From: Thermoproteota archaeon
GTDB lineage: Archaea; Korarchaeota; JAOZGF01; JAOZFZ01
NCBI GenBank assembly: GCA_027492035.1
Contig: JAOZFT010000003.1
Coordinates: forward strand, 1-31,027
DNA: 31,027 bases
Direction: 5' to 3'
The translations under genes were made by a program, and so were the position numbers. This document shows positions 1-28,384 of the stretch, piece after piece. The first letter of the stretch is position 1. Every line of letters begins with the position of its first letter. The notes beneath the pieces were generated by a model, which saw nothing but the letters and a program-made list of their open reading frames with translations, was not told where the DNA came from and made no database searches.

Positions 1-31
1 CTTTGAGAATCTTTGAGAAGGTGCAAAACCC

Positions 32-1735
32 ATGTTTCCTATATGGTTTGTCGTTTTAGGAATCATCGTATATGCAATAGCTTACTTTGTTTACGCAAAA
101 TGGTTTGACAGAAACGTTTGGGAACCAGACCCAAAAAAAGCTACACCAGCCCATGTTTACATGGATGGAATACAATACTTTCCAGTCAGTAAATACGTAC
201 TGTATGGTTTCCAGTTCAAGGGGATAGCAGGTCTAGGCCCAATATTTGGGCCGTTCATAGCTTTATTCTATGGATGGGTGCCGGCACTAATCTGGATATT
301 AATTGGGAACTTTTTCATAGGTTGGATTCATGACTATTCTTCCCTTTTCCTCTCCGTCAGAAACGAAGGAAAAACGATGGGGCCTTTAACCTATGAAATT
401 ATAAGTCCAAGGGCAAGGAAAGTGCTTATGGGTTTCCTTCTGTTCTACTTAATACTAATAACAGCAGTCTTCGTCCTGCTTTGTTCATTATTCTTTAATT
501 TGTACAGGGCGTCAGTTCCAGCTATGATCTTCCTAATAATAGGTGGTGTAATAAGTGGTATACTTCTCTACAAAGTAAAAACAGGTGTCGGGGTTTCAAC
601 GCTTGTAGGTTTAATAATCACAGCCATAGGAGTGGCAGTAGGCGTTTACACAGGTCCAAGCATAACTTTCGGAGACCTTAACTTCTATATGCTTTTCACG
701 TGCATAATCCTGTTCATAGGAACAGTTGTGCCTCTAATCTACTTCACTCAACCGGTTATTTATGTTGCATCTTACCCAGCAATCTTTGGAATAGTACTTA
801 TAATACTTGGCGCCTTAATTTCGCCTGTTACGGGAGTTGCAATACAGCAACCAGCTTGGTTAGGTCCATTGGGAACTTCAGGCCAATTTTGGGGAACTCC
901 AGGGCCTATATGGCCTATTCTAATGGTCTCAATCGCATGTGGAGCAATTTCTGGCTGGCATAGCTTAGTGAGTACTTCAGGGTCCTCTACACAGTTAGAT
1001 GTTGAAACAGATGCTTTGCCTGTAGGAGCTGGGTCCATGATAACAGAAGGCTTACTTGCACTTGCTTCATTAGCGGCTTTCATGGTTGTTTCAGGTGAAG
1101 CAGTGAAAATGACTAAGTGGGATGCATTAATAAAGGGGGCGGTAGCTCTTGTTTCACCTTACACTGGTGGTGCAGCAGCACAAACTTGGCTTAGTGCATT
1201 TTATGCAATGTGGCTTGAACTATACGCTTTAACAATTGAGTTACTGGTTCTAAGGTTCTTCTGGCTTGCAATGTCTGATGTTCTAAGCCCAGTTCCTGCG
1301 TTAAAAACAGCGATAGGAAACAAGTATGTAGCAACCATAATAGCTTTAGTTGTAGGCTGGGCTTTTGCCTACTCAGGTGCCTGGGTTAACCTCTGGTTAC
1401 TTTTCGGTGGTTCAAACCAGTTACTGGCAGGGTTAGCTTTGACACTAATCACTGTCTATTTGGCAAAGGTTAAGAAACCAACAATTTTCACTTTAATACC
1501 TGCGTTGTTCATGGTAATCACATGCGAGGTTGCGTTGCTATACGAGGGAGGTAAATTCCTTTACGTTGTCTCTATGGGTAAATTTATTGCTAAGGGAGCT
1601 TTAACCAAGAATCCTGCAGCAGCAACAGCACTAAACGTTATATTCGGCATAGTAGGCCTTGTGTTATTTATTCTAGGATTAATAGTTGCATACGATGGAT
1701 TCAAAGCATTAAGAAGAGCAAAAAAAGGTGAGTAA
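32..1735 (+). CDS. cstA: Carbon starvation protein A (CstA) family peptide/pyruvate transporter
   Basis: 567 aa, highly hydrophobic multi-TM protein. It has the N-terminal TPAH..DG..Y.P motif, IAGLGPIFGP, G.IHDY.SL..SVRN.G and the CstA signature IACGAISGWHSL. An SD-like GAAGGTG lies upstream of the ATG. Confidence 0.92.
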   Translation: MFPIWFVVLGIIVYAIAYFVYAKWFDRNVWEPDPKKATPAHVYMDGIQYFPVSKYVLYGFQFKGIAGLGPIFGPFIALFYGWVPALIWILIGNFFIGWIHDYSSLFLSVRNEGKTMGPLTYEIISPRARKVLMGFLLFYLILITAVFVLLCSLFFNLYRASVPAMIFLIIGGVISGILLYKVKTGVGVSTLVGLIITAIGVAVGVYTGPSITFGDLNFYMLFTCIILFIGTVVPLIYFTQPVIYVASYPAIFGIVLIILGALISPVTGVAIQQPAWLGPLGTSGQFWGTPGPIWPILMVSIACGAISGWHSLVSTSGSSTQLDVETDALPVGAGSMITEGLLALASLAAFMVVSGEAVKMTKWDALIKGAVALVSPYTGGAAAQTWLSAFYAMWLELYALTIELLVLRFFWLAMSDVLSPVPALKTAIGNKYVATIIALVVGWAFAYSGAWVNLWLLFGGSNQLLAGLALTLITVYLAKVKKPTIFTLIPALFMVITCEVALLYEGGKFLYVVSMGKFIAKGALTKNPAAATALNVIFGIVGLVLFILGLIVAYDGFKALRRAKKGE

Positions 1736-1763
1736 CCCTTTTTCCCTCCTTTCTTTTTCTTTT
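1736..1763 (+). terminator. Probable archaeal T-rich intrinsic terminator after cstA
   Basis: Pure pyrimidine/oligo-T tract (ccctttttccctcctttctttttctttt) immediately after the TAA stop. Confidence 0.5.
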
Positions 1764-1914
1764 AGAAAAAGACCACACTTTTCCTTAGACTCATTTACTC
1801 GTTACGGGAATTTATTTACCTTATTTATCTCTTAAAAGGGATTTTATTTTTTTTTAATTTTTTAGCTTTAAAAAGAAAAAGGAACATTTATAAAGCTGTA
1901 AAAGTAGGAAACTA

Positions 1915-1946
1915 TGAAAAATTTTTATAAAACAAAACATATAAAT
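1915..1946 (+). promoter_or_regulatory. Putative BRE/TATA promoter of the FadF-like-etfB-etfA operon
   Basis: Purine run gaaaaa followed by TTTTATAAAA at about 1923-1932, with a second TATAAATA at about 1940-1947, 25-50 bp upstream of ATG 1972. Confidence 0.4.
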
Positions 1947-1971
1947 ACATTTTTTTTTGGAGGGAGAACAA

Positions 1972-3921
1972 ATGCTGCCTTCCCGTCCATACTTTACTTT
2001 TATGCCTTCTTGGGCGGTCTCAGTTTTTTATCTCAGCGTTGTAGCAGCATTAATTTTTTTCTTTGCTAAAATGTTTTTTGAAGTCCGCAGGTATGGTTTT
2101 AAGATTTCTAAACTCAAAAATATAAATGTAAAAATTAAAAATTTACTCGAGACGGAGAAACTTTTATTGACAGACATTTATGGGGGGGTAGCTCATACTT
2201 TCGTAGCCATAGGTTTGTTTATTTTGTTCTTGGGAACAATTTGTGTCTTTATAGAATATGATATCCTATTGAAATTTTTTAATACTCGTTTTCTCACCGG
2301 GGTAGTTTATCTTTCCTATGAAGTTGTGATGGATGTTGCAGGTTTAATTTTCTTCCTGGGTGTTTTGGCAGCAATTGTAAGGAGAGCCTTTGTTAAACCA
2401 TCAAGACTAATTAACAGGAAAGAAGACGCTGTGATACTGTTTATACTTCTTTATGGAGGCTTAAGCGGTTTTATAATGGAGGGTATCCGGCTTGCAATTA
2501 AACCTGTCCCTTGGGGCTCAGCGTCATTTGTGGGTTACATCCTATCCCAGATGTTTGTCCTTACTGGCCTAACATACAATTTAGGATGTGGGATTTACCC
2601 TTTCCTTTGGTTAAGCCATGGTTTAACCTTGAGTGTTGCAGTAGTTGCTTTTGCTTTCACTAAACTTAAACATTTTCCTCTGTATTTCCTTGGAGTGCAG
2701 AATCCTTTGGAGAAATGGGTTACCCCTTTCAATTTGCCTTTAGTTCTTGAATCTAAAAAAATAGAAGTCCCTTTAGGGGTAAACAAGCCTTCAACCCTTT
2801 CTTGGGACCAAAAAATTAATGCTGAGGCATGTGTAAACTGTGGACGTTGCGAAGAAGCATGTCCAGCTTACAGGGCAGGAAAGATTCTGTCCCCAAGAAA
2901 CATTGTCCAAAAAATATCTTTCACACTTAAAAAATCTTTAAACAAGGAATTAATTTCTTCAATAATTAATGAAGATGAAATATGGTCCTGCACCACTGAC
3001 GGTGCTTGCGTGAAAGCATGTCCAGCACTTATCAACCCTTTAGATTACATAGTGGGGTTAAGAAGATATCAGGCAATGAACCTGGGAAAAGTTCCTGGTT
3101 CAGCTTTATTCAACATTTTAGTGAGAGATAACCCTTATGGGTTACCTAGGTCGGAAAGAATAGGTTGGAGAAAAAACTTGGACATCAAGGTGTTGAAAGA
3201 GGGGGAAGAAACAGATGTTCTTTACTGGGTTGGTTGTGCAGCCTCTTACGATGCACGTTTACAGAAAGTGGCTCAAACAGTTGTTAAAATACTAAGAAAA
3301 GCCGGGGTAGATTTTGCAGTGTTAAAGGATGAGGGTTGCTGCGGTGAATTAGCTAGGAGACTTGGAGATGAATACTTGTTTCAGGAAATAATGTTTAGGA
3401 ACATTGAAAAATTAAAGAAGTACAAGTTTAGAATCCTCCTTACTACATGTCCCCATGGCTACAACATATTCAAAAACGATTACTCCGAGTTTAATGGAAA
3501 ATTCAAAGTTTATTCGCACATCGAATTCATAAACAAACTTTTGGAAGAGGGGAAGCTGGAAATAAAAGCTAACCTTAGCAAAAAAGTGACTTATCATGAC
3601 CCCTGTTACCTGAAACTATATAACAACCTCACTCAAGAACCCAGAAAAATTTTGATGAAAGCAGCTGGGTTGAAATTTGTTGAAACAAAGAAATTTTACT
3701 GTTGTGGAGGTGGTGGAGGAGGGAACTGGTTTGAGTCTAAAGGTGAACAGAGACCTAATATTTTAAGGTTCAGAGACACTTTAGAAGTTAATCCTGACTT
3801 AATAGCTGTAGCTTGCCCTTACTGTTTAAGCATGTTTGAAGACGCAGCCAAAACTGAAGGATACGAAGAAAAAGTAGAGGTAAAAGACATAGCAGAAATA
3901 ATTTCTGAACTTCTAGAATAA
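1972..3921 (+). CDS. Membrane-bound Fe-S oxidoreductase, FadF/EMO-like (NarI-like TM domain, 2x[4Fe-4S], two CCG domains; HdrD/GlpC-related)
   Basis: N-terminal TM helices carry candidate heme-b histidines (GVAHTF, WLSHG, KLKHF). Also present are CVNCGRCEEACP and CTTDGACVKACP, the CCG-domain motifs YWVGC, EGCCGE, TTCPHGY, TYHDPCYL, CCGGGGG and VACPYC. ATG 1972 after GGAGGGAG is preferred over TTG 1957. Confidence 0.88.
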   Translation: MLPSRPYFTFMPSWAVSVFYLSVVAALIFFFAKMFFEVRRYGFKISKLKNINVKIKNLLETEKLLLTDIYGGVAHTFVAIGLFILFLGTICVFIEYDILLKFFNTRFLTGVVYLSYEVVMDVAGLIFFLGVLAAIVRRAFVKPSRLINRKEDAVILFILLYGGLSGFIMEGIRLAIKPVPWGSASFVGYILSQMFVLTGLTYNLGCGIYPFLWLSHGLTLSVAVVAFAFTKLKHFPLYFLGVQNPLEKWVTPFNLPLVLESKKIEVPLGVNKPSTLSWDQKINAEACVNCGRCEEACPAYRAGKILSPRNIVQKISFTLKKSLNKELISSIINEDEIWSCTTDGACVKACPALINPLDYIVGLRRYQAMNLGKVPGSALFNILVRDNPYGLPRSERIGWRKNLDIKVLKEGEETDVLYWVGCAASYDARLQKVAQTVVKILRKAGVDFAVLKDEGCCGELARRLGDEYLFQEIMFRNIEKLKKYKFRILLTTCPHGYNIFKNDYSEFNGKFKVYSHIEFINKLLEEGKLEIKANLSKKVTYHDPCYLKLYNNLTQEPRKILMKAAGLKFVETKKFYCCGGGGGGNWFESKGEQRPNILRFRDTLEVNPDLIAVACPYCLSMFEDAAKTEGYEEKVEVKDIAEIISELLE

Positions 3922-12911: not shown

Positions 12912-15251
12912 GTGGAGAAAAAAAGGTTTTGGTTTCTTGATGTAACAAGGGAAATTTCAAAGGGGAAAAGTGAAATATGGGTTTGGGGTTTAACAGATGA
13001 CAAAAAAAGAATTCTTTTGATAAATAAAGACTTTAGACAAGTTTTTTTCTTAGCTTTTCAAAGTAAAGAAAGGGGGAAAGTGGAGAGTTTCCTTGATAAG
13101 TTAAGTAGTGAAGGATTGGTTATCTCTTACTCCTTTAAGGAAAAAAACCTTTTCGGGAAACCTTTACAAGGTATGGAGATAGAATGCACAGCCTTTTCGT
13201 TCAACGAAGCCGTTAAAAAAATGAGTAGGGAATTCCCAGCTTGCAAAATTTTTTTTGACGACATAAACTTCACACGGCAATACCTGCTTTTCAAAGATTT
13301 ATCTCCCTCTTCATGGTATGAAACTGAAGTAGAAAGGGGGGATATAAGCGATTGGGGAGAAACTTATTTCTTTAAGGAACTGAAGAAAAGGGAACCGGGT
13401 AAAATTCCAGATTTGCGAATTCTTTCCGCTGACTTTATTTACACAAGCTCTAAAGGTGAACCTAACCCTGAAAGAGATCCTGTAGCAATTATTTCTGTTG
13501 CCACCAGTAATGGGAGCAAGGAACAATTTATTTTGCGAGAAAATGAAAAGGAGCTTCTCCATAACTTTGTTTCTTTTGTGAAGAAGTACGACCCCGACAT
13601 AATTGTTACTTTCAAGGGGAATAGTGAACACTTCTTTTACTTAGTGGAGCGTTCAAGAAGACATGGTTTAGATTTAGGTTTGGGAAGAATGAATGAGCCC
13701 CCTCATCCTGGAATTTTTGGCCATGTTTCAATTTCAGGTAGGCTCCATTTCGACTTGAAAGACTACATAAACGAAATCCCTTCTATCCAACTCAAAACCT
13801 TGAAAGAAATGGCTGATTTCTTCGGTCTAACCTGTGAAAAACACATTGATGATTTTATGTTTCCAATTTACTGGCAAGAAGGAGATTTTAAGAGGGAAGA
13901 ACTGAGAAAATATTCCATATGGAGAGCTGAAACAATTCTTAAAGTGTTTAATTTAATTATGAACCAAGTTTTTACTTTATCCCAAATAACAGGATTGCCT
14001 GCTGATCAAGTTTTTGCGGCTTCGCCAGGGTTTAGGTTAGAAAATTATTTGATGCGGGAGGCTTTAAAAAGGAATGAATTAATACCTAAATCTGCAGAAA
14101 AATTTGCAAAACGTTACATTGGAGGAAAAGTTATTTCCCCTAAGCCAGGTTTACACTCAAAAATAGCAGTTATAGATTTTAAGTCAATGTATCCAAGTTT
14201 AATGATTAAATACAACATCTCTCCTGATACAATAATAAAAATTGGAGAGGCTGAAGAGGATTCCCTCAAAATTGAAGAGGCAAAAATAGCTATTCTTCAA
14301 AAAAAGAAAGGGTTTTTCACTCAAATACTTGAAAAACTTATAGAGGAAAGGGATTTAACCAAAAAGAGGTTGAAAGAAATAAGTCGGGAGTCTGTGGAGT
14401 ACTCCCTCCTGGATGTGAAACAGAAAAACCTGAAAATACTTGCTAATGCAATGTACGGTTACATGGGATGGACAGGTGCAAGATGGTTTGTTAGAGAAGG
14501 AGCTGAAGCTGTAGCTTTTCTGGGAAGAAAAACAATAACTGAATCAATTAACAAAGCTGAAGAATTAGGGCTGGAAGTTATTTATGCAGATACTGACAGC
14601 TTATTTGTAAAATATAATGAAGAAAAGGTTAACAAGTTAATGAATTGGGTTAGGGAAGAGTTAGGCTTAGAAATTAAAATAGACAAAATTTATGAAAAAG
14701 TGGTTTTTACAGAAGCGAAAAAGAAATACGCAGGAATAACTAGTAAAGGGGAACTGGATATAGTAGGTTTAGAAGTGGTCAGAAGTGACTGGTGCAACTA
14801 TGCAAGAGAAACCCAGAAAAAGGTGTTAGAAAAATTATTAATCGATACACCTATGACAGAAATATTTGACTTAATTAAAGAAAGAGTTAACCAGTTACAG
14901 CAGGGTAAATTTAAACTAGAGGATTTAATTATTTGGGAACAAATAACGCGTTCCTTGGATGAATATAAGGCAAATGCGCCACACATACAAGTAGCTAAAA
15001 ATTTGGTTGAGAAAGGGTGGGAAGTAAAGAAAGGAGATTTTGTAGGTTACGTAATTTGTAAGGGGGAGGGGAAACTGTTTCTAAGATCCAAACATTACAC
15101 TGAAGTGAAAAAAGAAGAAGTAGATGTTGAGTACTACATTAAAAAACAAGTAATTCCCGTCTGTACCCGAGTTCTTAGGGCATTAGGAGTTTCAGAAAAA
15201 CAACTTGAACAACTTATTTCAGTTAAAAAAGGACTAGAAGCGTTTTTCTAA
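12912..15251 (+). CDS. polB: Family B DNA polymerase, PolB3-like, with apparently degenerate 3'-5' exonuclease
   Basis: Motif A DFKSMYPSLMIKYNISPDT, motif B KILANAMYGYMG, motif C YADTDS, KKKYAG, GLEVVRSDW, YYIKKQVIP and a C-terminal PIP-like KKGLEAFF. GTG start after AGGTG. Confidence 0.95.
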   Translation: MEKKRFWFLDVTREISKGKSEIWVWGLTDDKKRILLINKDFRQVFFLAFQSKERGKVESFLDKLSSEGLVISYSFKEKNLFGKPLQGMEIECTAFSFNEAVKKMSREFPACKIFFDDINFTRQYLLFKDLSPSSWYETEVERGDISDWGETYFFKELKKREPGKIPDLRILSADFIYTSSKGEPNPERDPVAIISVATSNGSKEQFILRENEKELLHNFVSFVKKYDPDIIVTFKGNSEHFFYLVERSRRHGLDLGLGRMNEPPHPGIFGHVSISGRLHFDLKDYINEIPSIQLKTLKEMADFFGLTCEKHIDDFMFPIYWQEGDFKREELRKYSIWRAETILKVFNLIMNQVFTLSQITGLPADQVFAASPGFRLENYLMREALKRNELIPKSAEKFAKRYIGGKVISPKPGLHSKIAVIDFKSMYPSLMIKYNISPDTIIKIGEAEEDSLKIEEAKIAILQKKKGFFTQILEKLIEERDLTKKRLKEISRESVEYSLLDVKQKNLKILANAMYGYMGWTGARWFVREGAEAVAFLGRKTITESINKAEELGLEVIYADTDSLFVKYNEEKVNKLMNWVREELGLEIKIDKIYEKVVFTEAKKKYAGITSKGELDIVGLEVVRSDWCNYARETQKKVLEKLLIDTPMTEIFDLIKERVNQLQQGKFKLEDLIIWEQITRSLDEYKANAPHIQVAKNLVEKGWEVKKGDFVGYVICKGEGKLFLRSKHYTEVKKEEVDVEYYIKKQVIPVCTRVLRALGVSEKQLEQLISVKKGLEAFF

Positions 15252-15470
15252 TTCCTTCAAGCCGAAATTTCAGATACGCAACTGAAAGAGACGTCAGTAG
15301 TATAGAACATTTATGTTGAAGAAAAAAAGGGAAAGAAATAAATTTTAAGGTGGAAGTATTTCTTTCATTTTTAGGTTCTCTAAAAAGAGTACGTTACGTG
15401 TGTAGCGAGTAATTTTAAATTTGGGGCAAGTTTTTAAACGAGAAAGAAGATTTTTCGAGTTGGGGAAGAA

Positions 15471-17366
15471 GTGGGTAGTGGGAACAGTTCCGAACACTTG
15501 AAAAACTTTAAAGAAAATTTTCTTTCCTTAGCAATAAACGAGAGACTAAGGTGGAACGTAACAAAATTTTTCCTATTCTCTATCACTTCTTACTTCCTTT
15601 TTCAACTTTACCCCTTTTATCCAAGCCGTTACATTTTCCTTGTTTTTAACCCCGTCCTTTTCCTTGTAGCTTTTTTAGGTTTAACATCCCTTAAGTTCCC
15701 GAAAAAAACACTTGCTACTATGCTTATTCTCTTCCTTTTCCCCTCTATTTACCAAACACCTTCCCTAATCCTTATACATCTTTCTTTAGTTGCCTTTTTT
15801 ATTTTTATTTTAGCGTGGGAATTTGTGGATTGGTTAACAGTTGCATTAATTATTTTATCATTTGTTACAGCATTGAACAGCACTATTTGTTTTTTTTCGC
15901 CTGTACCTATTCTATTCTTGGGTCTCAAAAACCGTAGAGAAGGTATGATTGCTGGTTTAACTGCTTCTTTCTTCATTTCTGTTTATGTCCTATGTAACGG
16001 ATTTAAAGGAGGCTTTGTTTATATTCCTTCAAGCCTGTATATTTCAAAAATCACTTTTAAAACCCCGCCAATCCCTTTCAGAAAATATGCTCCACTCTAC
16101 TTTTTTAACACCTTAAGTGAAGCCTTCAAATTTGATAGTTTAATAACTTTCGGTAAAGCTTTGGCTGTTTTCATAGATGAGCCACAGTTACTGCTTCAAG
16201 TAGTTACTTGGGGGTTTGTTGGGTTTACGGAACTAGAACTTCTACGGAAAATGAAGGAAATCTTAAAATGGAAAGAAAAATTCTACCTAACTACTCCAGC
16301 TTCCCTACTAAGCTCAATTCTAATCCTTGCCTACTACATTCTTTATTCAAACAACGGCAACTTATACTACTTAACCCTCTTCCTTGCTTCAACTCTTTTC
16401 ATGTCGCACCTTTATGGTTACATGAAAGTAAAGAGTGAAACTACTAAATTAAAGTATTTAATGAAGGAGGGAAGGGAAGAACTGCAATTTTTAACAACTC
16501 AGCTGAAAAAGGAAAAAACCTTTTTTCAAAGATACCTTCTAGAACTAAACAATTTAAAAAAAGGCTTCGAAGACGCCTTAAAACTTTGTAGACAATGGGA
16601 GTTTGAAGAAGCTAGGCAAAAAATTAAAGAAACAAACAAAGAAGTCAAAAAACTCAGCAAAGAAATAACAAAAACAATTTCTGAAACTGAAGAAGTTAAG
16701 GAGACATTTGAAAACTTAGAGGTGCAATTAAATGAAGTTAAGGCGTTACTTGCTGAAAAAGAGCTGAAAATTAAATTAAACAGCTACCTGAAGGAAACCC
16801 AGAGCTTGGAAAATAAATTAAATGAATTAATAAGGGCATTTAAAACAGAGGGGTTAACTCCTAAGTTAAAAATGGGAATTAAATCCCTAAAAACAGAAAT
16901 TACAGAATTAAGGCATGGAATAAAAGAATTTTTGGGTTTAAGAAGTACAGTGTTAATAGACGGTTCAAATGTTGCGCTATATGGCACATCGGAAGGTGAA
17001 CCTGCAAAACTTGAAAACATAAAGTTGTTACTGAAAGAAGTGCATAGAAACGGTTTTGAACCTATAACCATTGTCGATGCAAGTTTAAGGTATAGAATAA
17101 ACAAAAGAGAAGAATTTCAATCTATGTTAAACAGCGGTGAAATACTTCAGGCACCTGCTAAAAGAGCAGCTGACGAATTTATCCTAGATTATGCTGACCG
17201 TGAAAATTTACCTGTGATAAGTAACGACACTTATAAAGAATATAGAGAAAAGTATCCTTGGGTGAATGAGCCAACAAGAAAAATAACTTTTATGATTATA
17301 GGGGAAACAGTTATTTTCAACCCCTCCCTTCAAACCTTGAAAAAGAGAAGAATTTTGACACAATAA
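15471..17366 (+). CDS. Multi-pass membrane protein with coiled coil and C-terminal Zc3h12a/NYN (PIN-fold) ribonuclease domain
   Basis: Residues ~30-320 are hydrophobic helices and ~325-490 are E/K/L-rich coiled coil. The C-terminus has VLIDGSNVA...IVDASLR...ADEFILDYA...VISNDTYKEY...YPW, as in Zc3h12a-like RNases. Confidence 0.8.
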   Translation: MGSGNSSEHLKNFKENFLSLAINERLRWNVTKFFLFSITSYFLFQLYPFYPSRYIFLVFNPVLFLVAFLGLTSLKFPKKTLATMLILFLFPSIYQTPSLILIHLSLVAFFIFILAWEFVDWLTVALIILSFVTALNSTICFFSPVPILFLGLKNRREGMIAGLTASFFISVYVLCNGFKGGFVYIPSSLYISKITFKTPPIPFRKYAPLYFFNTLSEAFKFDSLITFGKALAVFIDEPQLLLQVVTWGFVGFTELELLRKMKEILKWKEKFYLTTPASLLSSILILAYYILYSNNGNLYYLTLFLASTLFMSHLYGYMKVKSETTKLKYLMKEGREELQFLTTQLKKEKTFFQRYLLELNNLKKGFEDALKLCRQWEFEEARQKIKETNKEVKKLSKEITKTISETEEVKETFENLEVQLNEVKALLAEKELKIKLNSYLKETQSLENKLNELIRAFKTEGLTPKLKMGIKSLKTEITELRHGIKEFLGLRSTVLIDGSNVALYGTSEGEPAKLENIKLLLKEVHRNGFEPITIVDASLRYRINKREEFQSMLNSGEILQAPAKRAADEFILDYADRENLPVISNDTYKEYREKYPWVNEPTRKITFMIIGETVIFNPSLQTLKKRRILTQ

Positions 17367-17407
17367 CAACTTTTTTTGAATGTTTTGAATAGGAAAAGTG
17401 GACGAAA

Positions 17408-17806
17408 ATGAAATATAGGTTAATGGATATTTTAGCTTGCCCCATTTGCAAAACATTTCCTCTAAAATTGATCGTTTTTAAAGAATCAACTCATGAAAAA
17501 GAAATGAAGGGGGCTAAGTCGAAAATCTGTTGTGAAGAGTACTGTAGCTTAAACAATGGCTATGTTTCCAAAGTACCACTTGAAAAATTAATTTGTAGTG
17601 AATGTTTAAAGAAAGAAATAGTGGAAGGAATAATAATTTGTCCGGAATGTTTAAGATGGTTCCCGATTCAGGATGGGATCCCAAGCATGTTGCCTGACGG
17701 TTTAAGGGAGAAAGAAAAAGAAGTTTCTATTCTATGGAAATATAAAGAGGCAATACCTGAAGAAGTGCTTAAAAACGGAAAACCTTTCAATTTGATGAAC
17801 TTTTAA
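17408..17806 (+). CDS. trm112: Trm112 family methyltransferase activator (long form with Cys-rich insert)
   Basis: MKYRLMDILACPICK...EIVEGIIICPECLRWFPIQDGIPSMLPD is the Trm112 zinc-knuckle signature, with an extra CxxYC/CxxC insert. Confidence 0.9.
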   Translation: MKYRLMDILACPICKTFPLKLIVFKESTHEKEMKGAKSKICCEEYCSLNNGYVSKVPLEKLICSECLKKEIVEGIIICPECLRWFPIQDGIPSMLPDGLREKEKEVSILWKYKEAIPEEVLKNGKPFNLMNF

Positions 17807-22425: not shown

Positions 22426-23853
22426 TCAAGTAATCTTAATTATTTCATCTATTTGAACTTTGTGGTCGCTGTTTCTGTCATACCAATGTATAATTAACTC
22501 TTTAATGATTAAAGGATGGGTTTTTACAAATATTAAACTGGATTTTGTACCATATCTGTAACTTCCCATTACTAAAAGAAACCTGTCTACTAGATAAACT
22601 ACACCGTAATCTCTTGTTTCCCAAGTGCTCCTATAGGTCTGGCCTTTAAAGGTTACTTTATCCTTCTCAAACTTTATACCTGCAACTTCACATTTGTCTT
22701 CGGCGTAAGGGTTTGCGAAAGGCCCCCCTAAAAGCAGAACACATCCCTTGCTTGGTAAAACCGTTAAGATTTCTTTTTCAGGAAATAATGAACTAGCTAT
22801 TTGTTTATCTATGTCAGTAACTGCTACTATGACGTAGTTTCTTGACAAGAAATCACTTATTGTCTTAGGATATTCAACTGTTATTTGAAAAGTTGCAGTG
22901 GCTGTAATGTTTTCGGAGCAGTTAACTTTAACTTCTACATTGTATGTCCCTTCCTCAATTGATTCCGGGACTGTGAAGTTCAGGTTGAAACCTTTCTTTT
23001 CTCCCCCCTTTAAATCTCCTAAGGAAGAAGAATAAAGTGTTTCATTGTTCATAAACAGATTCAACGTAATGGATGAAGCATTGGTTTCACCTGAGTTATT
23101 AATCACTCCCTCAACTTTAACTGTTTCACCTGGAATAACTTTTTCAGTGAAAGAATTCACATCTAAACTTAAAGCCGGTTTCTTCTCAGCAACATATACC
23201 ACACAACTGTTTTCTACGTAATCCCCTGCAAGAGACCACCCCTTCAAAGTAAAGGTTATAATTCCTGCTGGAGGCTTAACAACTCCAACTAACTCATAAA
23301 GAATTCCCCCTTGAACATTGCCTTGATACAGTGTAAAAGTGCCGTTATGTACTTCAATTAACTGCACAGTAGCATTATTACTTGCCCCGTAATATATTAC
23401 TAATGAATCTCCAGTGAAATATTTTGAGTTGCATCCTTTATCCACCCATAGATCAACTCTGAAAGAAGTTATGTGTACATAGTAATTGCTTCCATAACCC
23501 ACTACTCTGCCTATGTTTTGCAAAGGCCCTGCCTTTTTCCAGTAGTATCCGTAAACCTCTAATTTGTCTCCTAACTTAACCCCCAAAGAGTTAGGTCCAA
23601 AACAAACCTCTACAGTATTAACGTTACTTAATAAACCTTGAGGGTCACTTAATACCTTATCAACATGTACTTTACAGTAATAGCTTCCGTAACAAACAAC
23701 TGCACCGTATTTTTCGTTTTCAAGTGCTGTTGCAGCAAATTTAACAGGGCCGCTGTTGGCAAGTGAGGGAGAATGAGGCAGATTAGTTGTTGAAGAAAAA
23801 GGGGGTATTGAAAAAAGGAAGATGAAGGTAAACAGGAGAACTTGTTTCTTCAT
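22426..23853 (-). CDS. Secreted modular cell-surface protein (DUF4384-like and CARDB-like Ig folds, S-layer-like C-terminal domain)
   Basis: Signal peptide MKKQVLLFTFIFLFSI; VDLWVDKG...Y..GD.L.IYY; CARDB-like PGETVKVEGVINNSGETNA...GTYNVEV; C-terminal LLGGPFANP and MGSYRYGT motifs resembling archaeal S-layer-type domains. Confidence 0.6.
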   Translation of the reverse strand: MKKQVLLFTFIFLFSIPPFSSTTNLPHSPSLANSGPVKFAATALENEKYGAVVCYGSYYCKVHVDKVLSDPQGLLSNVNTVEVCFGPNSLGVKLGDKLEVYGYYWKKAGPLQNIGRVVGYGSNYYVHITSFRVDLWVDKGCNSKYFTGDSLVIYYGASNNATVQLIEVHNGTFTLYQGNVQGGILYELVGVVKPPAGIITFTLKGWSLAGDYVENSCVVYVAEKKPALSLDVNSFTEKVIPGETVKVEGVINNSGETNASSITLNLFMNNETLYSSSLGDLKGGEKKGFNLNFTVPESIEEGTYNVEVKVNCSENITATATFQITVEYPKTISDFLSRNYVIVAVTDIDKQIASSLFPEKEILTVLPSKGCVLLLGGPFANPYAEDKCEVAGIKFEKDKVTFKGQTYRSTWETRDYGVVYLVDRFLLVMGSYRYGTKSSLIFVKTHPLIIKELIIHWYDRNSDHKVQIDEIIKIT

Positions 23854-24116: not shown

Positions 24117-25280
24117 TTGCAGGAGAAAGGTTTGACTGAAACTGAAATAATGGAAATAATTTCTGGAAAAGTGAAAAGTGACTTCACCTACGATTCAGGG
24201 CGGATTTTAAGCTCTATGTGCAGCAAACCAGATCGCTTAAGCATGAAAATTTATTCCATGTTTCTTGAAAAGAACTTAGGCGACCCCTTTCTCTTTCCTT
24301 CCTGCAAATTTTTTGAAGAAGAAGTAGTTAACATGTTAGGTGAGTTACTTTCAAATAAGAAGGCTGCAGGCTTCATTGTTTCGGGAGGAACTGAAGCTAA
24401 CATACTTTCTATGTGGGTCGCTGTTAAAAACTCTTCAGTTAAAAAACCTGAGGTTTTAGCACCTGAAACTGTCCATTTCTCTTTCGATAAGGCCTCAAGT
24501 CTTTTAGGGTTCCGCCTTATAAAAATAGGTTTAAATGATGAATTTCAAGTAAATGTTAACGAGATGAAGAAAAGGTTGACAAGTAACACAGTAGCTATTG
24601 TAGGAGTTGCAGGGTCTTCAGGGTTAGGTGTAGTCGATTCAATACCTGAGCTGAATGAATTAGCTGAAGAAAACCACCTTTATCTCCATGTTGATGCAGC
24701 TTTCGGGGGTTTAATAATTCCTTTTCTGAAAGAGGAGGGGGTTGAAGTACCGGACTTCGACTTTAAACTTTCCTCTGTCTCCTCAATCACGGTTGACCCG
24801 CATAAAGCAGGGTTCACTCCTATTCCTTCAGGTTGCATCCTTTTTAAAAACAAAGAGTTAATTGAAGATTTCGGTTTTGAAGTTAAGTATGGAATAGGGG
24901 AGACTTATAAACAAAAAACGTTGCTAGGTACAAGACCATGTGCAGCGACAATAGCTACATGGGCTGCTTTGAAACACTTGGGAAAGAACGGGTTCCGGGA
25001 AAGGGTGAAGTATTGTTTGAAATTAACGAATTATTTTGTTTCCAAAATAAAGAATTTTGACAGGGTTAAGCTAGTTGTAGCTCCCCAGCTTAACATTGTA
25101 GGTTTCAAAACTGTGGGCTTAGGTGAATCTTTAGTTGTTAAGAAGTTAAGGGAGAAAGGGTGGGGTTTAACTCTTTATAAAGATTTCATAAGAATTATTT
25201 TGCTTCCTCACATCTCATTTCAAAACCTGGAAGAGTTTCTTCATGATTTAAAAAATATTTTAAGAGGATTAAGAAAGTAA
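24117..25280 (+). CDS. mfnA: L-tyrosine/L-aspartate decarboxylase (PLP-dependent), methanofuran biosynthesis
   Basis: GRILSSMCS, NLGDP.LFP, SGGTEANI, HFSFDKA, LHVDAAFGG, the PLP-lysine motif TVDPHKAG and GTRP. It is adjacent to mfnB. Confidence 0.93.
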   Translation: MQEKGLTETEIMEIISGKVKSDFTYDSGRILSSMCSKPDRLSMKIYSMFLEKNLGDPFLFPSCKFFEEEVVNMLGELLSNKKAAGFIVSGGTEANILSMWVAVKNSSVKKPEVLAPETVHFSFDKASSLLGFRLIKIGLNDEFQVNVNEMKKRLTSNTVAIVGVAGSSGLGVVDSIPELNELAEENHLYLHVDAAFGGLIIPFLKEEGVEVPDFDFKLSSVSSITVDPHKAGFTPIPSGCILFKNKELIEDFGFEVKYGIGETYKQKTLLGTRPCAATIATWAALKHLGKNGFRERVKYCLKLTNYFVSKIKNFDRVKLVVAPQLNIVGFKTVGLGESLVVKKLREKGWGLTLYKDFIRIILLPHISFQNLEEFLHDLKNILRGLRK

Positions 25281-25324
25281 TTTCTTTAAGTGATTCCTTT
25301 CCAGGGAAGGTGGGAAATGAGGGA

Positions 25325-26032
25325 ATGAAGGTTTTAGTAAGTGTGAAAGATAAAGAGGAAGCTGTTGAAGCTTTAAATGGGGGAGCGCATATTATAGACT
25401 TAAAAAACCCAAGTGAAGGTTCATTAGGCCCCTGTTTCCCTTGGGTAGTGGAAGAAGTCATTGAAGCCGTTTCCGGGGAAAGGGAAATAAGTTTAGCGAT
25501 CGGGGACTTCACTTACTTACCTGGCACAGCCTCTCTAGCTGCTTTCGGGGCTTCTCACTTAAACATAAATTATGTTAAGGTGGGGCTTAAAACTAAATCT
25601 TTTGAGGAGGCTATTGACTTATTAAGTAAAGTTGTTAAAACCATCAAGAGTTATAACGGAAAAATAAAAATTGTGGCTGTAGGTTACGCTGACTATTCAA
25701 GAGTAGATGTTGTTCCTGTAGATAAAGTACCTGAAGTAGCAAGTGAAGCAGGAGCTCATGTTGCAATGATAGATACAGCCATAAAAGACGGGAAAAGTTT
25801 ATTCCATTTCTTGTCGAAAAAAGAAGTAAATAATTTCTTGGTTAATGCACGGAGGAAAAAATTGATGACAGCCTTGGCAGGCTCCTTAAAATTTAAGGAT
25901 TTGGCTTTAATTAAAAAACTGAAACCTGATGTGGTAGGTTTCAGGGGTTTAGCCTGTGAAAAGGGAGACCGTGTAAACGGTAGAGTTAAGCAAGAAAGAG
26001 TTAACGAAATAATTAATCTTTTACATGAATAG
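25325..26032 (+). CDS. mfnB: (5-formylfuran-3-yl)methyl phosphate synthase (4-HFC-P synthase)
   Basis: LVSV...EEA.EA..GGA.IIDLKNPSEGSLG, PGTASLAA.GA, YVKVGL, GYADY, MIDTAIKDGKSLF, ALAGSL and PDVVGFRG. ATG 25325 is preferred over GTG 25310. Confidence 0.93.
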   Translation: MKVLVSVKDKEEAVEALNGGAHIIDLKNPSEGSLGPCFPWVVEEVIEAVSGEREISLAIGDFTYLPGTASLAAFGASHLNINYVKVGLKTKSFEEAIDLLSKVVKTIKSYNGKIKIVAVGYADYSRVDVVPVDKVPEVASEAGAHVAMIDTAIKDGKSLFHFLSKKEVNNFLVNARRKKLMTALAGSLKFKDLALIKKLKPDVVGFRGLACEKGDRVNGRVKQERVNEIINLLHE

Positions 26033-27163: not shown

Positions 27164-28384
27164 TCAGCCACCAAGAAAGGTTTCTATTTTCTTTTTAACC
27201 CGTAATAAATTGTTTCTAGCTTCTCTCCTTCCTTCACCGTAACCTGTAATTAAAACATAGTTACTTTTCTCTCCCTCAAATAAAGGCATCGGAGGGACTT
27301 CCACCCCCTCTAATCTACTTTTCAATATCTCATTTGAAAAATTGTATGGTACCTTAAGCTTAAGGAAGTAGGTGAAACCATGTGTCTCAATTTTCATCGG
27401 CAATTTCTTTTTTAGGACAGCATCCATGATTAAACGGGGAGTATTTGCGTCTAAAACCTTGCTTACACCCACATAAGAAGTTGTTAGTCTAGGATTTATT
27501 TCCACAATGAATGAAGCATCTTTTGTTAAAACTAAATCAACACCTACGTATCCCCTTAATCCCTTAAAGAGTTTAATTGTTTTCGAAACATTTTCTAAAG
27601 CCTCTTTTTGTGAATTCACATGTAAAGGGGTTAAGCCTCCCTTGTAAATTGAAGAACTATTAGGCCCCCCTAAATTTAGAAACTGATAGTTAAGGGTTAG
27701 AGGAATAATTTTTGAACCGTTAGAAATTAAACTAACACTTGCATTTATTCCCTTAATGAATTCTTGGACAACTACCCCCTTCTTATAAATTTCCTCCTTT
27801 TTAAGCTTCTTTAAAGCAAGCTTTATTTGAGATTTACTTTTTACGACTTGGATTCCAGAACAACCAACCCCTTCCACAGGTTTAAGAACAAGGGGTAAAT
27901 TGAATTCCTTCAAAACTTTCATTGCTTCAAGAGTGTCAGATGGGTTCTTAATGAATTCAGTGAATGGAGTATTTACCTTCCCTCTTCTAATTTTCCTGTA
28001 AAAATTCATTTTGTTCCTTACATTTTTTATAGCTTCAACTGAACAGTTTAAGGAAAGACAATTATCTGTAAGTAAAGACACTTTCTCCTCAAGTACGCCT
28101 GAACTTTCAGGGGCAATAATGTATGAAGCATAGAAATCATGTGTTTCAACAAGTTCTTTAAGTGAGAGACCCTGCGAAGAGACAACTTCTACATTCCCAA
28201 CTTCTTTTAAAACTTTAAATTTTATAAGGGAAGGGGAGAGAACAGTTGTAACTTGATAACCTGCTTTGACGAAGTCTTTCAGCAAAGTTTTTAACATGGC
28301 TAAACCTTCACATAAAATGCTTGAGGTAACTGTTTTGTTAATTGAGGCGTAAGCTGAAGCAAACTCGAAAACAAAAACTTTCAT
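27164..28384 (-). CDS. mfnD: ATP-grasp tyramine--L-glutamate ligase MfnD-like
   Basis: MKVFVFEFAS...ILCEGLAML, IIAPE.G.L, LKPVEGVGC, QEFIKGINASVS, YKGG.TP, GLRGYVGVD and EINPRLTTSYVG, within an mfn cluster. Confidence 0.85.
   Translation of the reverse strand: MKVFVFEFASAYASINKTVTSSILCEGLAMLKTLLKDFVKAGYQVTTVLSPSLIKFKVLKEVGNVEVVSSQGLSLKELVETHDFYASYIIAPESSGVLEEKVSLLTDNCLSLNCSVEAIKNVRNKMNFYRKIRRGKVNTPFTEFIKNPSDTLEAMKVLKEFNLPLVLKPVEGVGCSGIQVVKSKSQIKLALKKLKKEEIYKKGVVVQEFIKGINASVSLISNGSKIIPLTLNYQFLNLGGPNSSSIYKGGLTPLHVNSQKEALENVSKTIKLFKGLRGYVGVDLVLTKDASFIVEINPRLTTSYVGVSKVLDANTPRLIMDAVLKKKLPMKIETHGFTYFLKLKVPYNFSNEILKSRLEGVEVPPMPLFEGEKSNYVLITGYGEGRREARNNLLRVKKKIETFLGG

Follow-up and report, generated by a model that had tools for sequence, protein, structure and literature searches.

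What is a Regnase-type nuclease doing at the end of a polytopic membrane protein in an archaeon? The question is raised by an open reading frame (ORF) at positions 15471-17366 of contig JAOZFT010000003.1, which belongs to a Thermoproteota archaeon of the Korarchaeota (assembly GCA_027492035.1; a genome bin of 1.87 Mb in 42 contigs, 93% complete). The contig, at its full length of 31,027 bp, is the window analyzed here. The ORF lies on the forward strand, starts with GTG and runs through 631 codons with no internal stop. Its product, P0001, has a three-part layout in which about ten membrane helices are followed by a linker (residues 337-487) and a PF11977 domain (residues 492-618), the order that a first-pass annotation, made from the DNA letters alone, had described. 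We favor the view, with a probability of about 0.45, that P0001 would act as a cytoplasmic endoribonuclease controlled by its membrane module, a view built on sequence comparison and structure prediction.

The C-terminal domain is matched by the PF11977 profile over residues 492-618 (nt 16944-17324; profile positions 3-141 of 154) with an E-value of 1.1e-17 and 64.7 bits, against a cut-off of 23, and with 63.5 bits in a genome-level search; nothing but PF11977 rises above the Pfam threshold in P0001. In the AlphaFold2 (AF2) model of residues 301-631 (72 alignment rows; predicted local distance difference test score, pLDDT, of 82.3), the last membrane helix is followed by three long helices and a compact α/β domain, with pLDDT values of 94-98 in the NYN domain. 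The PIN fold expected for this domain was recovered by Foldseek, which aligned the NYN model with ZC3H12C (7ndi_A) at E 1.3e-7 and probability 1.00, with a root mean square deviation (rmsd) of 3.2 over 146 columns and a TM-score by target of ~0.64. MCPIP1 (3v33_B) was matched at E 7.4e-7, and 6sjd_A and 8wzc_A were matched as well. There were 31 matching chains at E<=1e-3, and those listed are all of the Zc3h12a type or PRORP (ZC3H12C, ZC3H12B, MCPIP1, KHNYN and PRORP). The NYN sequence by itself gave no match at E<=0.01 among the PDB sequences; a 25-row NYN profile recovered ZC3H12C (E 1.1e-12), ZC3H12B, MCPIP1 (2e-11), KHNYN and PRORP2 (7e-8) from the same set.

The four acidic motifs previously read as an intact tetrad (IDGSN 496-500, VDAS 535-538, ADEF 567-570 and SND 584-586) are all present. 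All rows of a 72-row alignment have D497 and N500, and at least 90% of them have D568, N585 and D586. D536 is an acid typical of the prokaryotic clade and is without a counterpart in the ZC3H12C alignment. The acidic active-site residues of MCPIP1 are given, in PMC5499597, as D141, D225, D226, D244 and D248. With the numbering carried over from the ZC3H12C motifs, D497, D568, D586 and E590 would correspond to four of these five positions, and A567 to the fifth. P0001 has the catalytic family (PF11977, PRORP group) and the fold in common with eukaryotic Regnase-1/MCPIP1, ZC3H12B/C and KHNYN, along with the DGSN, D-x-F and SND motifs. It differs from them in the alanine at the first position of the DD pair, in the extra D536 and in its polytopic module and stalk, and shares ~20-22% identity with the solved structures. 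Moreover, it ends 13 residues past the NYN domain and lacks the CCCH finger by which Regnase/ZC3H12A-D are defined; neither a Cys/His cluster nor a zinc-finger Pfam match, nor any other RNA-binding domain, was found after the NYN domain. By its sequence, P0001 is therefore a member of the PF11977 family and not a Regnase orthologue, and its C-terminal domain would be a catalytically intact-looking Zc3h12a-type NYN endoribonuclease.

The membrane region has no matching model in Pfam or NCBIfam. Profile comparison identifies it as a recurrent archaeal module, so far unnamed. A HMMER search of 1.84e9 representative proteins gave 1211 matches at E<=1e-3. Apart from the query itself, 149 of them were listed, and 148 of these are to the NYN part only, the sole exception being P0024 (601 aa), which aligns over residues 10-483 (membrane region and linker) with 25% identity and a pairwise E-value of 2e-25. 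P0024 alone shares with P0001 the helical linker as well as the membrane module. In place of the NYN domain it carries another C-terminus of ~115 residues (about 485-601), which could be an alternative output domain and for which no match was found in Pfam, the PDB sequences or the ESM Atlas (no usable Atlas match). Weak matches of P0024 to Nad2 among the PDB sequences (E 0.002-0.017) lie on its hydrophobic stretch and were read as composition. A profile of P0001 and P0024 reached P0152 at E 7.9e-8 in 5.8e9 proteins (pairwise BLASTP E 6e-13), in which a class III cyclase domain (PF00211) comes immediately after the same membrane region. The three-row module profile then retrieved 57 mostly archaeal proteins besides the query. 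The module family thus comprises the N-terminal domains of P0152-P0208, which are mostly annotated as "class 3 adenylate cyclase". Its partner is PF00211 alone in 47 of the 57, PF25939 together with PF00211 in three, and a KaiC-like ATPase (PF06745) in three; the remaining four have no Pfam domain, two of them being short or partial. A class III nucleotide cyclase is therefore attached to 50 of the 57 relatives. In the module cyclases (P0152-P0200, and L008 described below), the homologous module shares 23-29% identity with that of P0001, has the same motifs and is also N-terminal. PF00211 follows the last helix directly there, without the long linker that P0001 has.

As a check against an artefact of hydrophobic composition, a hidden Markov model was built from the 57 other proteins alone, with P0001 and P0024 excluded. 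It scored P0001 at 65.2 bits over residues 30-285 and P0024 at 48.0 bits; the best scores for the shuffled membrane region of P0001 were 9.4 bits (2000 global shuffles) and 11.2 bits (2000 local shuffles in a 20-residue window). P0001 is thus a member of the module family both by the profile of the other members only and by its signature residues.

In a set of 43 genomes of the phylum, the module was found in three of the 42 other genomes, all of one genus and none with NYN. At the two readable loci among these, it is fused to AAA+ ATPase domains, of which the longer reading contains two and the truncated one at least one. These fusions (L005, G035:C2, ORF 1-2319, reverse strand; L006, G022:C17, ORF 1429-3360, forward strand) are of the Cdc48/FtsH type, with open frames of 900 and 883 aa, and the gene adjoins a gene for a CCG-domain (HdrD-like) protein in both genomes. 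A membrane-embedded double-AAA+ protein with this module appears, from these sequences, to be unannotated. Scanning genome contigs with the module alignment gave 588 pattern matches, one of which was confirmed, a cyclase fusion (L008) in a metagenome-assembled genome of Candidatus Bathyarchaeia; none of the 587 pattern matches in metagenome contigs was confirmed. The expectation that the transmembrane (TM) domain would occur on other effectors has therefore been borne out by class III cyclases, KaiC-like ATPases, AAA+ ATPases and the P0024 C-terminus. The full-length homologues that were also looked for did not turn up: a first word-based search returned the query alone, and among the module carriers found, only P0001 combines the module with NYN. 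P0001 was not found in the sole other genome of its family (94% complete) or in the other genome of its order (71% complete), and no PF00211 cyclase was found in its own genome (93% complete).

Hydropathy analysis (Kyte-Doolittle 19-mers) gives ~9 hydrophobic peaks at residues 51-291 of P0001. The AF2 model of residues 1-325 (59-row alignment; mean pLDDT 76.5, predicted TM-score 0.67) has 12 helices at residues 6-321, ~10 of them of membrane length, and one disordered loop (residues 180-198). The span count at residues 121-262 is not settled, and both counts lead to the same ends for the module. G70, L81, Y94, P146, G151 and G162 are invariant in the 59 rows of the module alignment, and the signature residues of the family (PFYP, YQ, P146, G151, R156 and G162) are all present in P0001. 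The most conserved of them (PFYP, YQ and P146/G151) map to short loops without charged residues, on the other face of the module from the basic loops. When the module was compared with 48,161 chains by VIA-align, the highest Z was 8.2, for a de novo protein, which is within the quoted noise range for helical models. FolT, an energy-coupling factor (ECF) S-component, was in the same range (Z 8.1, 139 residues, rmsd 5.5), and no fold was assigned. The best score for residues 1-320 in the ESM Atlas, 0.80, is below the usable level.

The side of the membrane on which the NYN domain would lie can be predicted from two directions. The cyclase and ATPase partner domains come after the last helix of the module, and cyclases and ATPases require cytoplasmic nucleotides; the C-terminus of the module, and hence the NYN domain of P0001, should therefore be cytoplasmic. 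The charge distribution of the family agrees. The N-terminal region (residues 6-30) has a family mean of 3.21 K/R versus 0.36 D/E (net +2.85), and the loop at residues 257-271 has 2.46 K/R versus 0.04 D/E (net +2.42), with 6 K/R in P0001. The latter is followed by exactly two helices, 267-293 and 298-321, with the uncharged loop NNGN between them. According to the positive-inside rule, a basic N-terminus and a basic loop followed by two spans place the C-terminus, the linker and the NYN domain in the cytoplasm. Both ends of the module and the RNase are thus predicted to be cytoplasmic, as the first-pass annotation had expected of the RNase, and an extracellular C-terminus is not predicted.

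The linker had been described as a charged coiled coil of ~165 residues. Its charge and helicity stand: residues 320-490 (171 residues) contain 36 K/R, 30 D/E and one Pro, and three helices are predicted. A heptad (3.5-residue) periodicity above that of shuffled sequences is seen only in helix 464-487 (reached by 3 of 1000 shuffles), not in the two long helices, 337-403 (909 of 1000) and 408-458 (312 of 1000). Searches of Pfam and NCBIfam with the linker gave sub-threshold matches of the SMC/Rad50 type only, far under the NCBIfam cut-offs. The first linker helix has a pattern shared with P0024, LC-x-x-W-x-F-[ED]-E-A. A homodimer prediction for residues 301-631 gave an ipSAE of 0.00 in both runs, without control runs, and has no bearing either way.

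The homologues of the linker bear on whether P0001 is a genuine protein. P0024 is homologous up to residue 483 and P0115, which consists of two TM helices, a helical linker and NYN, from residue 401 (residues 401-621, E 2e-20). These two independent partial homologues overlap at residues 401-483, across the junction region, which argues against an assembly chimera, as do the 631 uninterrupted codons and the GC content of 0.33-0.35 throughout. We consider it very improbable that P0001 is such an in-frame chimera, a functionless recent fusion or an inactive RNA-binding remnant. The protein does come from a single assembly (a singleton 90% cluster with two contigs from one source), and A567 does stand in place of one Asp of the eukaryotic active-site pair. 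Nevertheless, all the clade-conserved NYN residues have been kept, and the alanine is the clade consensus.

What we infer for P0001, namely catalytic activity, control by the module, oligomerization and substrates, would fit together as follows. The ~10-helix module, with both ends in the cytoplasm, would carry the NYN RNase on a charged three-helix stalk of ~150 residues. It would be an interchangeable input or scaffold domain, the slot after it being taken mostly by cyclases and elsewhere by KaiC-like or AAA+ ATPases. The state of the module, whether determined by binding of a ligand, lipid or partner to the conserved loops of the outer face or by its oligomeric state, would be relayed along the stalk and determine how active the NYN domains are or whether they pair; these domains would then cut RNA near the membrane in a Mg2+/Mn2+-dependent manner. 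A sensing role is supported by the presence of a cyclase, a signaling output, on 50 of the 57 module relatives, and by the location of the conserved motifs in uncharged loops opposite the basic ones. It is also supported by the conservation of the linker in P0024 and by the repeated wiring of surface or membrane domains to the NYN nuclease described below.

Several observations weigh against this model. The fusion of module and NYN is a singleton, with no second example in 1.84e9 representatives or 5.8e9 clusters, and a comparison of the whole of P0001 with the genomes of 60 relatives gave one match, to the NYN part only. The alanine at position 567 replaces the first Asp of the eukaryotic DD pair in the ZC3H12C alignment, and this is the consensus of the prokaryotic clade rather than a private loss of P0001. 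Foldseek found no match in the PDB for the membrane module model at E<=1e-3, and no convincing relative among known structures points to a binding pocket. The module also occurs on AAA+ and KaiC-like ATPases, for which a generic anchor is an equally good explanation. Double AAA+ (Cdc48-like) ATPases are typically hexamers, and class III cyclases act as dimers. A module found on both dictates no single oligomeric state, and so may be a plain anchor.

If it is such an anchor, the module would merely localize a constitutively active housekeeping endoribonuclease, which would degrade or process RNAs whose translation takes place at the membrane, functionally analogous to RNase Y or membrane-bound RNase E. 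We regard this as rather unlikely, even though the fusion of the module to enzymes as different as AAA+ unfoldase-type ATPases, the housekeeping and metabolic neighborhood without defense or mobile genes, and the possible promoter-like and terminator-like signals of the gene itself would all fit it. The layout of TM region, helical stalk and nuclease also resembles that of RNase Y, a conserved core enzyme with an N-terminal anchor (one TM helix), a helical/coiled region and a KH + HD endoribonuclease facing the cytoplasm. The likeness is one of layout logic, not of homology: Pfam gave no KH or HD match in P0001 at E<=1, P0001 has ~10 TM helices versus one, and it is a singleton. A housekeeping decay enzyme should, however, be conserved, whereas the whole protein is matched in one of 60 genomes (by NYN only), the module occurs in three of 42, and the other genome of the family has none. 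Neither loop motifs conserved across cyclase, ATPase and RNase fusions nor a 150-residue linker shared with P0024 would be needed by a passive anchor.

Is P0001 alone in bringing a nuclease of this type to the membrane? Archaeal Zc3h12a-like proteins had been taken to be usually small and soluble. We classed the 148 best NYN relatives (P0001 and P0024 left out) by a simple hydropathy rule, and this holds for two-thirds of them, with no hydrophobic segment in 101. It fails for the other 47, which have hydrophobic segments: 21 consist of a large N-terminal region, one TM helix and then NYN, 17 have a short N-terminal anchor before NYN, six have an N-terminal NYN followed by at least three TM segments, and three are of other types. 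In the 38 relatives anchored upstream of NYN, the 15 residues flanking the membrane segment contain 108 basic residues on the NYN side versus 36 on the other side; the NYN side is the richer in 27, equal in five and poorer in six. With 38 of 148 relatives anchored in this way, a surface or membrane domain wired to an NYN RNase is a recurring design. The single-pass archaeal proteins with ectodomain, TM helix and NYN (P0021/P0217, P0031, P0032 and P0048) resemble P0001 in a cytoplasmic NYN behind the anchor, with 36-44% identity in that domain. They have one TM helix, a large extracellular domain and an NYN domain ~30-50 residues after the helix; P0001 has ~10 TM helices and a 150-residue stalk, but no ectodomain of notable size. 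A cluster mate of one of them, a PQQ β-propeller-TM-NYN protein (P0021/P0217), is labeled Promethearchaeota. In P0023, P0057, P0087, P0108, P0142 and P0151 the order is reversed, with NYN at the N-terminus and 3-9 hydrophobic segments after it.

These proteins raise the possibility of a broader class of archaeal transmembrane "receptor-RNases" to which P0001 would belong, in which interchangeable inputs (Asgard-type ectodomains, the 10-helix module) are wired to NYN as a kinase-less prokaryotic counterpart of IRE1/RNase L, and the module is a true sensor for cyclase or RNA cleavage. We regard this extension as doubtful. IRE1 and RNase L combine a membrane or ligand sensor with an RNase whose activity depends on oligomerization. 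P0001 is like them in logic only, having a different nuclease fold and no kinase or KEN (Ribonuc_2-5A) match at E<=1. That RNases can be tethered to membranes is already known from RNase Y, RNase E and IRE1, and the NYN family itself is known; new are the combination of NYN with the 10-helix module and the finding that this module is an unnamed domain shared among proteins. The literature searched contained no account of an archaeal NYN RNase anchored in the membrane, or of the membrane module, though membrane-anchored PF11977 members might be listed in Supplementary Table S1 of PMC5499597, which gives TM predictions sequence by sequence for PIN-like proteins. Nor did the literature searched mention a membrane-bound RNase of any kind in archaea.

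The genes around P0001 bear on a third explanation, a role in conflict or defense, either as a sensor of membrane perturbation or virus entry that unleashes non-specific RNA cleavage or as a toxin-type PIN nuclease. A singleton with a patchy distribution would suit such an effector, and PIN-like nucleases are common as toxins and defense effectors, with viral RNA among the targets of eukaryotic Zc3h12a enzymes, according to PMC5499597. The surroundings of P0001 point elsewhere. It is flanked, in the same orientation, by genes for a family B DNA polymerase (PolB, 12912-15251) and Trm112 (17408-17806), and the contig genes are housekeeping or metabolic only: besides these two, they encode CstA, an HdrD-like CCG protein, ETF alpha and beta, fumarase, a three-subunit molybdopterin dehydrogenase, an AsnC regulator, MfnA-like and MfnB-like proteins and PEPCK. 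In the 31-kb contig there is no antitoxin-like small ORF, defense island, integrase or mobile element, and the GC content (0.33-0.35) is even across the gene and its flanks. In PADLOC-DB v2, a 2023 library poor in archaea, P0001 gave weak matches in the linker only, to SMC-like models (LmuB 6.7e-5, JetC 6.9e-5; range to 8.5e-3), which is similarity at the level of coiled coils, and no match to the NYN or TM parts. Finally, the domain is not a VapC-type PIN, as PF01850 does not match and no small ORF precedes the gene in an operon. A defense role is, on balance, improbable.

The first-pass annotation had pointed out the position between PolB and trm112. This arrangement is not kept in G001, the one further genome of the family. 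The PolB orthologue there is 465 bp from a contig end and the Trm112 orthologue is preceded by an unrelated gene of 364 aa. Since Trm112 has another upstream neighbor and PolB lies at a contig end, we give the PolB/Trm112 position no functional weight. The coordinates of the features discussed here are collected in Table 1.

Table 1. Features of the P0001 gene and its immediate surroundings in the 31,027-bp window.
Feature	Position (nt)	Strand	Basis or remarks
AT-rich upstream region with TATA-like runs: taattttaaattt (15410-15422), gtttttaaac (15430-15439)	15410..15469	+	sequence reading
Purine-rich ggggaaga just before GTG	15462-15469	+	sequence reading
Whole ORF (P0001): membrane module, helical linker and NYN RNase	15471..17366	+	631 aa
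N-terminal basic amphipathic helix, aa 6-30, predicted cytoplasmic	15486..15560	+	AF2 helix 6-46
Polytopic membrane module, aa 31-321, ~10 spans	15561..16433	+	hydropathy, AF2, family profile
PFYP motif, aa 48-51, first non-helical loop, family signature	15612..15623	+	P48, Y50 and P51 at least 95% conserved in 59 rows
YQ motif, aa 94-95, short uncharged loop between helices 3 and 4	15750..15755	+	Y94 invariant, Q95 98% conserved
P146...G151...R156 segment around short helix 144-153	15906..15938	+	P146 and G151 invariant, R156 97%
Strongly basic loop, aa 257-271, contains RKMKEILKWKEK	16239..16283	+	cytoplasmic marker
Charged helical linker, helices aa 337-403, 408-458 and 464-487	16479..16931	+	AF2 pLDDT about 66-84
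LCRQWEFEEA motif, aa 372-381, linker helix 1	16584..16613	+	LCGAWNFDEA in P0024
Zc3h12a-type NYN (PIN-like) ribonuclease domain, aa 492-618, and tail to aa 631	16944..17363	+	PF11977
IDGSN, aa 496-500 (D497, N500)	16956..16970	+	72/72 rows; aligns to VIDGSNVA of ZC3H12C
VDAS, aa 535-538 (D536)	17073..17084	+	prokaryotic-clade consensus DAxLRH; aligns to VFVPAW of ZC3H12C
ADEF, aa 567-570 (A567, D568)	17169..17180	+	aligns to DDRF of ZC3H12C
SNDTYKE (S584, N585, D586 ... E590)	17220..17240	+	aligns to SNDNYRD of ZC3H12C
Seven-T run, 5 nt past the P0001 stop and 30 nt before the trm112 ATG	17371..17377	+	sequence reading

The GTG is the earliest possible start of P0001, because the upstream frame is open for just 11 more codons (an open frame of 642 aa). 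A gap of 219 nt separates it from the PolB stop (15251), and the region at 15410..15469 is a possible promoter and ribosome-binding site of P0001 itself. The seven-T run after the gene is, likewise, a possible archaeal oligo-T terminator.

Other genes of the contig yielded observations of their own. The family B DNA polymerase upstream of P0001 (forward strand) has 779 aa and matches PF00136 (E 5e-72) and PF03104 (E 9e-19); the other genome of the family contains a 56%-identical orthologue and further PolB paralogues. When the five ORFs neighboring P0001 were compared with PADLOC, the sole match was that of this polymerase to a homing endonuclease model (E 1.6e-79, residues 512-777), most likely because the model includes polymerase sequence from an intein-bearing PolB, and not because a defense gene is present. 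A 475-aa ORF at 22426-23853 (reverse strand) has a CARDB/MG2-like domain (E 1.4e-7); it is probably a surface protein, the only obviously extracellular protein on the contig, and is not linked to P0001. Genes for an MfnA-like pyridoxal phosphate-dependent decarboxylase, a 4-(hydroxymethyl)-2-furancarboxaldehyde phosphate (4-HFC-P) synthase (MfnB; PF04476, E 3.5e-76) and an ATP-grasp protein lie together at 24117-26032 (forward strand) and 27164-28384 (reverse strand); this grouping suggests that the host organism makes methanofuran.

NYN genes also lie next to genes for membrane proteins elsewhere in archaea. PMC11915815 lists a conserved pair in Methanobacteriales and Methanopyrales, in which a gene labeled "Zc3h12a-like NYN" (0 TM) accompanies one labeled "Nucleotide cyclase" (>1 TM). 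We observed a tight row of three genes in the genome of an unrelated archaeon (L009, G044:C1:779294-786000; ORFs 745-1491, 1504-2529 and 2495-3736), in which a metallophosphoesterase gene lies upstream of a gene for a soluble NYN protein of 341 aa (PF11977, E 4.2e-27). The ORF that overlaps the latter downstream encodes 413 aa with an internal duplication and C-terminal TM helices. Its identity as a cyclase was not confirmed, with no Pfam match at E<=0.1 and an hhalign probability of 0.3 against a cyclase-containing alignment. If it is cyclase-like, NYN and membrane cyclases would be linked in two ways, by gene neighborhood there and by the shared module in P0001.

RNA decay in archaea is poorly mapped, and P0001 provides a concrete, testable case of a Regnase-type nuclease at the membrane. 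It also opens a way into an unnamed membrane module, which is carried by no fewer than 57 further proteins, the majority of them archaeal and the majority adenylate/guanylate cyclases. As the output of a cyclase is easy to read, the ligand of the module, if it is a sensor, could be screened for with cyclase chimeras. If the module is only an anchor, archaea would have arrived independently at membrane-localized RNA cleavage of the RNase Y kind. If it senses, the same input would lead to cyclic nucleotide synthesis in some proteins and directly to RNA cleavage in P0001, and two signaling outputs would be tied together.

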